Source of the DNA: an uncultured cyanobacterium
GTDB lineage: Bacteria > Cyanobacteriota > Cyanobacteriia > PCC-9006 > JAAUQQ01
DNA: 64,000 bases
Assembly (NCBI GenBank): GCA_963718615.1
Contig: OY970368.1
Location: 3,232,001-3,296,000 of the forward strand
Direction of reading: 5' to 3'
Positions 39,535 to 43,434 of the stretch are shown here, one piece after another. The stretch's first letter is position 1. Each line of letters starts with the position of its first letter. The notes under the pieces are model-generated. The model was not told the DNA's origin. It saw only the letters and a program-made list of their open reading frames with translations, and made no database searches. Position numbers and translations under genes: made by a program.

Positions 39535-39605
39535 TCAAAAAATTTTAAACAAGGCGCTGTGCGCTAAGAGAGGAAAGAGGGAACAGACTGAAGGGTAGAG
39601 GGTAA
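39535..39605 (-). repeat. Degenerate second copy of the element downstream of the caspase-FGE gene
   Basis: About 70-bp direct repeat of 40931-40999, including GAGGAAAGAGGGAA.AGACTGAAGGGTAGAGGGTAA. Confidence 0.8.
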
Positions 39606-39747
39606 TCTTAGAGCTTTAGCGACAGAACCTTGGCGTTTTAAATACTGAACCTTGAGATTCTCAGGGCCGGAAACCCAGAACCAGCAAGAAATCCAGCTTT
39701 TTTACCGTGTTAAAATGCAGGCTACCCCTGAGCAGGAGGCTAGGCCC

Positions 39748-40320
39748 ATGACCCTCGCAACCTCAAAAAAAATGACCCTCGAAGAGTTTCTGGCCTACGA
39801 CGATGGCACAGACACCCGTTACGAGCTAGAAAACGGAGAACTGATTGCCATGCCTGCGGAGAGCGAAATTAATCGTCGAATCGCCGTCTTTCTCTTGATT
39901 TACTTCAGCCAACTGGGAATTTCGCCAGCACGTCTGACCCTGAAAACTGAAGTTGCGGTCACCAGTACCCGAGTATCCGTTCGAATCCCAGACCTGATGA
40001 TTTTGTCAGAAGAAGGCGCAACGGCTTTAGAAGGCGCGAGTCGCTCCATCGTTCTCCTCGACATGCCGCCCCCCCAGCTTGTGGTCGAAGTTGTCAGCGC
40101 TGGCCAGGAAAAACGAGACTACCGCTACAAACGCACGGAGTATGGCGCGCGGGGCATTGTGGAGTATTGGATTGTAGACCCGATCGCCCAGCAAATCACC
40201 CTGCTGGAATGGGTCGAAGGGTTGTATGAGGAACAAGTTTATGGATTGGGCGATCGCCTCCGCTCCACTCTCTTCCCCGCCTTGGATTTAACTAGCGATC
40301 GCATCCTGAGCGCGCAATAA
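39748..40320 (+). CDS. Uma2 (DUF820) endonuclease-fold protein
   Basis: MTLEEFLAYDDGTDTRYELENGEL, RIPDL, LVVEVVS, EYWIVDP. Confidence 0.93.
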   Translation: MTLATSKKMTLEEFLAYDDGTDTRYELENGELIAMPAESEINRRIAVFLLIYFSQLGISPARLTLKTEVAVTSTRVSVRIPDLMILSEEGATALEGASRSIVLLDMPPPQLVVEVVSAGQEKRDYRYKRTEYGARGIVEYWIVDPIAQQITLLEWVEGLYEEQVYGLGDRLRSTLFPALDLTSDRILSAQ

Positions 40321-40336: not shown

Positions 40337-40390
40337 GTCTTTATTGTGGTTGAGTTCAGCGGTCCTCTCGCACAGGTAGTTCGCAAATGA
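40337..40390 (+). pseudogene. C-terminal remnant of the lost upstream partner gene
   Basis: VFIVVEFSGPLAQVVRK*, whose TGA overlaps the next ATG (ATGA). Confidence 0.4.
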
Positions 40391-40776
40391 GTACAGTCAA
40401 GACACTCCACGAAGAAGCCATGGACTTAGCGGAGTTGGCGGATGTGGCCAAGCTACGGGGTGAACTGGGACGGTGTCGTGAACTGCTGGTGCAGGCGTTG
40501 GAGAAGGCAATTGCGGCGGCGGATGAGATCGCGCCGAAGACAGATGCTGAGCCAACTCGCTCGATTATTCATCGCAGTGCAGCGTCGTTGGCCGTAGAGG
40601 TGGGTCAGGTGAAGGAGGCGGAACGGTTGTTGGCGGTAGCGTTGGCGGGTGATCCGCCTGCTGAGGTTGCGGAGGAGTTGAGGGATTTGTTTGTGCAGAT
40701 CAATTTGCCCTCTTATTTTGAGCGGCGGGGGTTATTGCTGGATATGGAGCGTTGGGAGTTATCGAAGGCGGGGTAA
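40387..40776 (+). CDS. All-helical (TPR-like) hypothetical protein
   Basis: LHEEAMDLAE, EPTRSIIHRSAASLA, PPAEVAEELRDL. Confidence 0.75.
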   Translation: MSTVKTLHEEAMDLAELADVAKLRGELGRCRELLVQALEKAIAAADEIAPKTDAEPTRSIIHRSAASLAVEVGQVKEAERLLAVALAGDPPAEVAEELRDLFVQINLPSYFERRGLLLDMERWELSKAG

Positions 40777-40930: not shown

Positions 40931-41020
40931 TCAAAAATTTTAAAAAAGGCGCTTCGCGCCAGGGAGGAAAGAGGGAAAAGACTGAAGGGTAGAGGGTAAA
41001 AGATTAAGAAGTATAAAGGG
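40931..41020 (-). other. DGR-target-type 3' element: pyrimidine tract plus GGCGC-GAA-GCGCC hairpin
   Basis: Directly after the FGE-domain stop codon; GC stem with a GAA triloop at 40948-40960. Confidence 0.65.
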
Positions 41021-42946
41021 TTACGTCCTCGGCGGCAAGCAGGCGACGCGGAACCCGCTGAAGCGGTTGAGGCGGCCGCGATCGAGCCAGTCGCGATTGG
41101 CGGAGCGGCAGTTCCTAGGACCGCGCATCCAGGAGCCCCCCCGCAGGAGCCGGAGTGATTGCTCACCCTTTTGTAAACTTTTCCATGCACTTCCATCTGT
41201 CGGTGCCCCCTCGTAGCTGTCGTGCCACTCGTCCTCGCACCATTCCCACACATTCCCATGCATGTCATACAGCCCAAAGGCGTTGGGTGGAAAGCTGCCA
41301 ACATCAGTCGTTTGTTCTCGATACTTCCCCTTGCTTCCCTTGCCGTAGGTAGAGTTGCCGTTGTAATTCACCAGGTCTGGCGTAATCGTTTCTCCAAAAT
41401 AAAACGGCGTTGTCGTCCCTGCCCGACAGGCATACTCCCACTCCGCTTCGCTCGGTAACCGATAGGTTTTGCCCGTCGCCTTGCTCAGCCGCGCACAAAA
41501 CTCCTGGGCATCGTCCCAACTAATGCACTCAATGGGGCGTTTGGGTCCTTTAAAATTCGCCGGGTCTGGCTCCAGATCTCGCTGCACCTTCGGCAGGGCT
41601 GCAACCCGCTTCCACTGTTCCTGAGTGACCGCAAACTTGCCGAAGAAAAACTCTGGCACTCTGACCCGATGCTGTTGCTCAACATTGACATTGCCTAGCG
41701 CTTCTCGCCAGTTCTTATACCAATCTCGCCCTTCTTCGTTTTCCGGCGATCCCATCACAAACTCCCCACCTGGAATCCGCACCATCTCCAGCACAACGCC
41801 ATTGCCCAGGTCTTCGACAAACTGCTCCGCCGACCGGGTCTCGCGCTGGCTGATCTTGCCCCGCTCATCCACCTGCACCGTCTCAAACTCAAACCGGATG
41901 AGGTTGAGGCCGTTGGCTGGGGGCTGGACGAACGGCGGTTCGTCCCTACGGGGGGTGGGGGATGATCGGGATCCTTGGGGGATTGGCTGGGGCTTCGGTG
42001 GGTCAGGTCGGGTGCCACTGCCTCTGGCCCGCAACTCTGGCAATTGCTGCAATGCCCGGATTGCCTCCATATCCCGCCCCTGGGCCACCACCAACACCCG
42101 AATCCAAATCTGCTCCGCTAGGTCCCAGTCTCCCTGAAACATCATCCGGTACGCATCGTTCTTGAGCACCGCAATATCCGTCAACGTCGCACAGCGCGGC
42201 TGCAAAATAAAATGCAGCTTCTCCGCCGGATCCGCCGCCGTCCGAGGCATTTGTTCCGGAAACTTGCCGTGCTGCCGACACAGCCCCGGCACCCGATCGC
42301 GCAAATACTGGCCCAACCGCTCCACCGTCGCACAATTGCGCTCCCCATTCAGCCGCAACGCCTCCAGCAAGCTATAGGTAAACGCCCCATGCTCCAACGC
42401 CTCAATCTCCCAAGACTTCTGCGTCGGTCCACAGGACGAAATCGTAATAATCCCCGGCTGCGCCTCCGCCCCAACGCCACCCCCATCCCTCGCCCCCTCC
42501 GTCCGGCAGGCATCCAAGAGCAAAATCACATTGTCCGCCCCACAGCGACAGAGCCGCTCCCGGATATAGTTCACCGGAATGGCCGTGCGGTCGATCACTC
42601 TCGGATTCGCATCTTGAGGCATCAAAAAATCCTGATTCTGATGCTGCCCCCCATGGCCCGCAAAGAAAAACCAACAGTTATCCCCCTTCTCCAGAAAAGG
42701 ACTAGCAAACCGATCCTCCAGCAACGAAATTAGATTTCCCACCGTCGGGCGAGTCGAAAGCTCGTTCCCATTGGGCAACACCTGGGACGGAGAATCATCC
42801 GTAAACAGCCACACCCCCTCAAACCCCGCCTCCTGGGCAAAAAAATCCCGCACCGCCTCCGCATCCCGCTTGGCATAGCGCAGCGGCGGGAAGTTCGTCG
42901 GTACATAATCATTGATGCCAATGACAAAGGCCCAATTGCGTGACAT
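41021..42946 (-). CDS. Caspase-like (C14) peptidase fused to a C-terminal FGE-sulfatase/CLec domain; putative DGR target
   Basis: [14 protein letters not shown] and LDACR (His/Cys dyad); [39 protein letters not shown]. Confidence 0.92.
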
Positions 42947-42976
42947 GGATTTGATGCGGTGACAGGTTTCCGGCAA

Positions 42977-43008
42977 CCGTAGGGACGAACAGCTGTTCGT
43001 CCCTACGG
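42977..43008. repeat. Perfect 32-bp palindrome, GTAG-type REP
   Basis: CCGTAGGGACGAACAG|CTGTTCGTCCCTACGG. Confidence 0.85.
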
Positions 43009-43434
43009 GGATTCTGGGGATAATGGTGGACTGGCTTTCTTAAATTTCAGCGTCATCGCTCCTTTTCCGCCCGTTTTGATCCCAGACCCCATCAAACTCA
43101 CCTGACCCTCCCCATTCACCTCCACCGTCAGCTCGATCGCCTCCAACTCCATCCCCGCCACATCCCCTGCACTCTCCAGCGCATGGCGCAACACCCGCCC
43201 CGTCACCTGCAAAAAATCCGTCAGCCCCTGCTCCAATTTTTCCGCACTCACTGCCACCCGCCGGGGCTCCGCAGTGGTTACGATGCCGCCGTCCTTGGAC
43301 GTGCGCTGGGGCGTGCGCTGGGGCAAGGTCTCGTAGGGACTAGACCCCAGATTCCAGTCTCGACTGCCCTCAGAATATTGAGCGTCAGCCACCGTGACTT
43401 CGTCGGTGATGAGCCAAATGTAATCGTTTGTCAT
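43003..43434 (-). CDS. Pepco/Trypco-type peptidase co-occurring domain protein
   Basis: IWLIT start; [50 protein letters not shown]; lies immediately upstream of the caspase gene. Confidence 0.7.

Follow-up and report, generated by a model that had tools for sequence, protein, structure and literature searches.

Is the receptor end of a caspase-like protease in an uncultured cyanobacterium still being rewritten by a diversity-generating retroelement (DGR), as a sequence-only reading of the locus had proposed, or is it what such an element left behind? The question is raised by a two-gene module on the minus strand of contig OY970368.1, in which a Pepco gene is followed, 56 nt after its stop codon, by the ATG of an orthocaspase gene that ends in an FGE-type C-type-lectin-like (CLec) domain. 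The window that was analysed is a stretch of 64,000 nucleotides, bases 3,232,001-3,296,000 of a single 6,095,823-base contig (6.1 Mb) rated 100% complete. Our answer, to which we give a probability of roughly 70%, is that this is a Pepco/orthocaspase-CLec defence-type module with a retired DGR variable repeat (VR) as its sensor tip. The tip is probably no longer diversified, the hypermutation system having apparently been lost from this genome (G000; G001-G030 and so on denote related genomes, mostly fragmented assemblies).

The sequence-only reading had taken the last codons of the protease gene for the product of adenine mutagenesis of a template. The codons that it quoted are the exact 3' end of the minus-strand open reading frame (ORF) at 41021..42976, and 23 of the 28 end in C or T. 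ATG was, as it had said, the sole codon that needs a non-adenine change; TGG forms no exception, since it aligns with AGG in the templates of relatives and an adenine change alone suffices there. Over the last 36 sense codons the third base was C in 22, G in 10, T in 4 and A in none, and over the whole 651-codon ORF it was G in 292, C in 153, T in 136 and A in 70. C stood in third position in 24/41 VR codons and in 45/200 of the 200 codons upstream (Fisher p = 9.6e-6), and the adenine content was 0.11 in the VR codons against 0.27 in those upstream. Three control FGE paralogs of this genome without a VR-type motif showed no comparable shift in composition (C in third position, 18/41 versus 0.32, 9/41 versus 0.30 and 6/41 versus 0.10). 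The VR reaches the stop codon of the FGE-domain ORF, and the 3' end of a CLec or FGE ORF is the position expected of a DGR target. When 50 orthologs were aligned, the last 45 residues contained 10 of the 25 columns with the greatest variability, at positions where templates have Asn codons, and between them stood an invariant framework (R602, G603, G604, W606, C613, R618 and R633). The coincidence of variable columns with template Asn codons indicates that DGR diversification of the orthologous group does occur. None of the public sequencing runs held this stretch (best share 0.08 of the sampled words, all metagenomes).

The GC-rich end resembling an initiation of mutagenic homing (IMH) site, the pyrimidine tract and the GAA-loop hairpin that had been pointed out 3' of the VR are all present (Table 1). 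The GC-rich end after the stop codon is GCCGCCGAGGACG, and the hairpin stem at 40948-40960 is followed by TTTTTTAAAA; the centroid fold of the flank retained this stem only. For comparison, 33 VR-type ends (9 from this genome and 24 from relatives) were set beside the flanks of 11 templates. In the 45 nt after the stop the VR-type flanks had a pyrimidine fraction of 0.60-0.91, whereas the templates were followed by one of 0.33-0.58. An all-GC hairpin ending in a T-rich tail stood 22-76 nt beyond the stop in 25/33 VR-type flanks, and 0/11 template flanks had one. An IMH-like GAGGAC boundary followed by an inverted repeat that templates lack is expected of DGR targets, and our gene has both. The identical 13-mer hairpin also stands behind DGR-adjacent targets of G030 and G018.

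The origin of these features was clearest in the relatives. DGR-type reverse transcriptases (RTs; ~360-390 aa) adjoin FGE-domain genes in G002, G003, G007, G013, G018 and G030, and the relatives' template repeats (TRs) translate as Asn-rich copies of the FGE C-terminus. The 3' end and flank of our gene are homologous to VRs paired with templates beside these RTs, and the DGR signature claimed from the codons is borne out to this extent. The G003 TR differed from the adjacent caspase-FGE VR at 15/28 adenine sites and at no non-adenine site in the first 122 nt, the G030 TR from its adjacent VR at 14/31 adenine and 3/95 non-adenine sites, and the G002 TR from two local VRs at 14/29 and 18/29 adenine sites, each with 2/97 non-adenine sites changed; true TR/VR pairs in relatives had 0-3 non-adenine mismatches. 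The G003 locus is ordered target (the caspase-FGE gene), avd, RT and TR, and at the nucleotide level the FGE domain nearest to ours is that of this target (73% identity over 718 nt, reaching 30 nt beyond the stop). A full-length ortholog in G030 (55% identity) differed from its own TR at 14/30 adenine and 2/90 non-adenine sites, with one extra codon; as the G030 TR fits this gene at 88/90 non-adenine sites, genes of the orthologous group are DGR targets elsewhere. A degenerate template-start pattern, applied to five genomes with orthologs, had matches in G001 and G013 and none in G009, G024 and G028, where a miss is weak given the narrowness of the pattern.

No RT or template had been seen near the gene in the sequence-only reading, and this observation extended to the whole genome. 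RVT_1 had 0 matches in the 100%-complete single contig; the same search was positive in 18 of the 31 genomes scanned, G000 not among them, and recovered the DGR RTs of relatives at E 1e-18 to 1e-24. A tblastn search of this genome with nine DGR RTs of relatives gave a best E of 0.11, the match being a multi-copy element, and a profile of the nine against all six-frame ORFs of this genome gave a best E of 1. No Avd was found in this genome with the Avd of a relative as query. The RT that an active DGR target requires was thus absent from this genome. When the G003 cassette was compared with the window, only the FGE domain and the VR matched, and none of avd, RT and TR was detected downstream of the gene.

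The genome-wide template search proposed in the sequence-only reading returned no adenine-only match. With VR and flank as query, the non-self matches in the whole genome were only paralog ends (69-70% identity) and copies of the flank, with no template among them, and the mismatches of the paralog ends to the VR fell on all bases. Among nine in-genome template candidates, adenines accounted for only 15-25% of the mismatches in eight paralog ends and for 57% in a template remnant, so that none reached 60%. In cyanobacterial DGRs, more than 80% of the mismatches are expected at template adenines (Vallota-Eastman et al. 2020, PMC7517822; the published sources named here and below are cited from excerpts); the best in-genome value here was 57%, and against the best foreign template it was 17/32. 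That reading had held that it would fall if no RT or template existed in the genome or its relatives: in this genome there are none, whereas both exist in relatives, so that by its own rule half of the claim falls. Its central proposal, a hypervariable receptor that is being diversified in this genome, was not supported, with no RT by three methods, no Avd and no cognate template.

What remains of the DGR machinery was delimited by a motif scan of this genome; of its 11 matches, 9 were VR-type ends, one was a template-type remnant and the last was unrelated. The remnant (G000:C1:5133887-5133983; L006:1476-1572) lies between small FGE genes arranged in tandem, within a gap of 550 bp, and is an Asn-rich copy of an FGE C-terminus. 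It matched the TRs of relatives at 75-86% over its 5' part only, including some bases upstream of the template start, and is truncated, being without the 3' part and without the conserved downstream RNA region of the relatives' TRs. A G003 contig with an intact cassette aligns to this 5.13-Mb cluster, where its RT has no counterpart, and similarity to a third G003 template was seen in two VR ends at 6.03 Mb. Read most simply, the pattern means that this genome lost several cassettes of the family and kept their targets. The remnant was rejected as the template of our gene, its non-adenine mismatches numbering 3-6/55 to five other VR ends against 13/55 (or 12/52) to this VR.

Three further observations were made at these sites. 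An inverted repeat lies behind the 5.13-Mb remnant where relatives have the conserved template-downstream RNA region, with no RT beside it. The 1.8-kb gap between the FGE genes at 6.03 Mb (G000:C1:6034514-6036103) is filled by tandem peptide-like repeats and a ~188-aa ORF and contains no template. An orphan VR-type end at G000:C1:944459-944729 consists of ~45 codons of an FGE C-terminus with several Asn codons kept and no FGE domain upstream; it retains the pyrimidine tract, the hairpin and the T run, and its flank is the closest relative of the flank of our gene.

The best template anywhere for this VR was the G003 TR, at 75.7% over 115 nt. In an ungapped comparison over 108 nt, 16/26 adenine sites and 12/82 other sites differed (p = 8e-6). 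The two are far from a live pair, yet they are much closer to each other at framework positions than at the positions of Asn codons. We propose the following history. An ancestor would have had a cyanobacterial DGR cassette beside, or acting on, this gene, and mutagenic retrohoming would have rewritten the last ~40 codons of the C-type-lectin-like FGE domain, the traces of which may be seen in the A-poor, NNC-rich segment, the IMH-like end and the downstream hairpin. The RTs would subsequently have been lost from this genome. With nine VR-type ends and one truncated remnant left behind, the VR would now be fixed and drifting by ordinary mutation.

Several points weigh against this history. No in-genome or foreign candidate has its mismatches almost only at template adenines. 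Without a cognate template, the view of the VR as a former target is based on homology and composition in place of an adenine-only TR/VR pair. In a gapped comparison with the G003 TR over 126 nt, 17/28 adenine and 15/92 non-adenine sites differed, with a 6-nt gap. AAC codons occupy ligand-binding positions, and an enrichment of mismatches at adenine sites is therefore expected for any paralog. The G003 target (L035:2740-2990, G003:C103) shifts frame ~40 codons upstream of its VR, which is either a real frameshift or an assembly error, G003 like most relatives being a fragmented assembly. The hairpin with its T run also scores as a plain terminator. It departs, moreover, from the rule established for the target of phage BPP-1, which calls for stems of 7-10 bp, 4-nt GRNA loops and a spacing of 4-34 bp (Guo et al. 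2011, PMC3240598, as excerpted): here a 5-bp stem with a 3-nt GAA loop stands 60 nt after the stop, with a T run behind it. Given both the departure and the terminator score, a role of this hairpin in homing is a prediction.

Some of the same observations would be expected if the gene had never been diversified in place, and the FGE domain, the VR-like end and the flank had been copied from a true DGR target by duplication or domain swap, the flank being kept as a good terminator. The caspase part and the FGE part differ in their closest relatives, and the DGR-adjacent gene of G003 matches the FGE half only; the orphan VR with its flank at 944 kb and the second flank copy downstream of our gene (Table 1) show that 3' modules move or duplicate; and the terminator score of the hairpin fits as well. 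The G030 template, however, fits a full-length ortholog at 88/90 non-adenine sites, and the variable columns of the 50 orthologs are the template Asn codons. We regard such a transfer as unlikely.

Still less probable, in our judgement, is that the VR continues to be diversified in trans, by an RT and template located off the assembled chromosome (plasmid-borne, or carried by a phage, infecting or lysogenic) or by an RT too divergent for detection. In its favour, although no RT is present, the IMH-like GAGGAC boundary and the pyrimidine tract have been retained at all nine VR-type ends of this genome and the all-GC hairpin at seven of them; DGR loci that are incomplete or act in trans have been reported from other bacteria (Dore et al. 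2024, PMC10907252, as excerpted); and the assembly comprises one contig, so that a plasmid-borne RT would escape notice, a point that also counts against our own reading. Against it stand three independent RT searches and one Avd search that came back empty although the RVT_1 search finds the RTs of relatives, and the single template-like piece, which is truncated and non-cognate. Partial decay of a like kind was also seen in the Pepco-linked ortholog of G002 (L025:477-1415, G002:C95), which has two in-frame TAG stops in its caspase part and 7/92 non-adenine mismatches to the G002 template. G002 still possesses a DGR, and the gene appears to be a target in decay.

Returning to the sensor tip, we characterized the protein that carries it. 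The caspase dyad is intact, as claimed from the sequence: the His lies in FAGHGG and the Cys in LDACR (His108/Cys157 in the 651-aa numbering, H98/C147 in the 641-aa numbering), and both were invariant in 50/50 aligned full-length orthologs. The NCBIfam model caspase_w_EACC1 scored 64 bits against a cut-off of 140 bits, so the protease does not belong to that subfamily. A catalytic FGE, EgtB or PvdO assignment was not supported by the NCBIfam equivalogs (PvdO 168 versus 500 bits, EgtB 53 versus 360 bits). The solved relatives of the FGE domain were PvdO (5hha, E 2.6e-40) and TvpA, a DGR variable protein of Treponema denticola (2y3c, E 1.5e-20, residues 501-648), and judged from these matches the domain is a putative lectin-like binding module similar to TvpA, with which it shares an FGE-type C-type-lectin fold carrying the VR. 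TvpA itself, according to its description in PMC5758913, is a lipoprotein without a protease domain, and its genome has an active DGR. Of 8000 candidates scored, 2051 were homologs of the caspase-FGE protein at E <= 1e-50, and PF00656 and PF03781 were present in every one of the 120 listed; the nearest protein in a search of 5.8 billion was 68% identical.

The architecture is thus common, and it is already in print: cyanobacterial DGR variable proteins have an N-terminal orthocaspase and a C-terminal CLec/FGE domain, remote targets included (Vallota-Eastman et al. 2020, PMC7517822). In our protein the domains stand in that order and the VR likewise lies at the 3' end of an FGE-type CLec, and relatives have such genes beside avd-RT-TR. 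Unlike the systems excerpted from that paper, this genome has neither RT nor cognate template, and the only uncommon aspect of the locus is this clean RT-less state with kept homing signals.

The Pepco gene is present in one copy in this genome, and the 46 homologs found were all assigned to PF24393 (46/46). An AlphaFold2 model of the protein (mean pLDDT 62) showed an N-terminal strand, disordered residues 13-52, a helix at 64-93 and a beta-hairpin at 99-132, with 11 Pro-rich residues beyond KFKK as a free tail in the monomer model. No solved structural relative was found at E <= 1, and a prediction of a four-copy complex of residues 55-143, run without controls, scored 0.13 against a mark of 0.42, a value that bears on oligomerisation neither way. 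Pepco adjoins the ortholog in loci of six relatives (L020, L022, L024, L025, L028 and partly L026), and no Pepco stands beside the G030 ortholog.

The sequence-only reading had cast Pepco as an adaptor, and the nearest published counterpart speaks against this role. In the SsPepco-SsAvs4 system of Streptomyces subrutilus, Pepco forms pre-assembled, denaturation-resistant beta-barrels, a neighbouring protease removes a C-terminal tail, and the cell is then killed, with toxicity depending on Pepco and on the protease active site; according to the same excerpts Pepco is a protease-activated pore-forming effector whose partners include cysteine proteases as well as proteases fused to FGE domains (Evans et al. 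2025, preprint, PMC12642450). Our module resembles this system in having a small PF24393 protein directly upstream of a sensor-fused protease with intact catalytic residues. It differs in that the protease is a caspase-like Cys protease, not trypsin-like, and the sensor a CLec domain, not a STAND ATPase, and in that Pepco, at 143 aa, contains a long disordered insert. An Ile cleavage site, conserved according to these excerpts where the partner is a serine protease, was not located in our Pepco.

By analogy with these homologs, the C-terminal lectin-like domain would bind a ligand, most likely a phage or foreign component, and binding would switch on the N-terminal caspase-like protease. The protease would cut the neighbouring Pepco, which might then permeabilize the membrane and kill the cell, as modelled on the Streptomyces Pepco and its trypsin-type protease. 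Candidates for the cut site are the conserved basic KFKK before the Pro-rich tail and the conserved RR before the helix, the latter being common to members of the Pepco subfamily in an alignment of 47 sequences. A further point to be set against our account is that in most of these 47 sequences the tail beyond KFK has just 2-6 residues, so that most members are almost tail-less; a 2-kDa tail is cut from the Streptomyces Pepco, and activation may therefore differ.

A suicide-type defence is thus a putative function of the module, suggested by homology. An alternative is that it is not antiviral: the orthocaspase-CLec protein would adjust either a pathway of regulation or development or a programme of cell death, and Pepco would be its substrate or partner under common regulation. 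A regulatory role has been ascribed to cyanobacterial DGR variable proteins that contain orthocaspase domains (PMC7517822), and PADLOC recognised no defined system in the module, only its generic 'caspase' model (E 2.3e-15). We think this rather improbable, as a Pepco-protease pair gave toxicity that was triggered by a phage protein and needed Pepco and the protease active site (PMC12642450), and tight adjacency of Pepco is kept in the loci of six relatives. The module also resembles the conflict systems described by Dore et al. (2024, PMC10907252), where a CLec sensor, hypervariable there, is joined to a peptidase effector with small Trypco/Pepco-type partners; unlike the systems in those excerpts, the form found here is a minimal one of two genes without a retroelement. 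The ORFs and families that were examined around the module included no NTPase (STAND, MoxR) or vWA component. Work of Kaur and colleagues in 2020 reportedly concerns peptidase-containing conflict systems in multicellular bacteria whose FGE sensors are DGR-diversified.

Table 1. Coordinates of the module, its sensor tip and the repeats around it (positions in the window).
Feature	Position	Strand	Evidence and remarks
Pepco gene, 143 aa	43003..43434	-	Pfam PF24393, E 1.5e-25, model positions 1-112 of 112
Orthocaspase-FGE/CLec gene, 641 aa	41021..42946	-	From the ATG used by orthologs; ORF listing extends to TTG at 42976 (651 codons)
Peptidase_C14 (caspase) domain	42233..42940	-	PF00656, E 1.8e-20, residues 13-248
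FGE-sulfatase (C-type-lectin-like) domain, presumed ligand sensor	41042..41788	-	PF03781, E 2.3e-53, residues 397-645 of 651
Putative fossil VR, 41 codons from LRGGSW to the last sense codon	41024..41146	-	Composition and homology; ends in IMH-like CCGAGGACG
Pyrimidine-rich tract, 60 nt	40961..41020	-	After the stop; first 45 nt 82% pyrimidine; common to VR flanks of paralogs and to DGR targets of relatives
All-GC hairpin GGCGC-GAA-GCGCC with T/A run	40938..40960	-	Terminator scan; equivalent in position to the DGR target hairpin
Second copy of the distal flank (tract end, hairpin, T run)	39538..39605	-	61/68 nt; 1.33 kb further downstream, slightly decayed
Perfect palindrome, 28 nt	42979..43006	no strand	Between both genes, overlaps the Pepco stop; core GGGACGAAC-N4-GTTCGTCCC; copy of a dispersed repeat

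The neighbours of the module were unrelated to it by Pfam, with a GTPase upstream and, downstream on the opposite strand, a Uma2 gene (39652-40320) and a 129-aa ORF (40387-40776, plus strand) for which no family match was found in Pfam, NCBIfam or PADLOC. These two plus-strand genes are bracketed by the two copies of the flank, and the second copy may be the scar of a rearrangement that removed the sequence formerly behind the VR. The palindrome between Pepco and the protease gene belongs to a dispersed repeat with 8 full copies in the genome, its 12-nt half-sites occurring 24 and 23 times against 0.4 expected. A half copy lies at 41938-41946, within the Pro-rich linker of the caspase-FGE ORF, and copies were also present in VR flanks of paralogs and relatives. 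Elsewhere in the window, 2280-2417 is a copy of a multi-copy element with at least 13 near-identical tblastn matches genome-wide, in ORFs of ~384-393 aa; the top matches to a DGR RT query, none of them significant, came from this element.

For annotation, the locus shows that an FGE/CLec domain whose last codons bear a DGR-like signature is not necessarily undergoing hypermutation, and that RT and template need a genome-wide search. As a closed chromosome that has nine VR-type ends, a single truncated template and no RT, the genome is a clean example of DGR decay, and genomes of the same family keep intact cassettes, one of them beside the closest homolog of this sensor domain. It is a long shot that the nine ends serve as standing landing pads, at which an RT and template arriving by phage, plasmid or unassembled replicon could re-diversify the sensors of many death modules together; if true, receptor diversification would be a horizontally supplied on-and-off trait and not a resident one. 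The genome could help to ask what becomes of a diversified sensor repertoire after its diversifier is lost, and the module offers a natural caspase-type Pepco pair for asking whether the trypsin-type activation of a pore toxin carries over.

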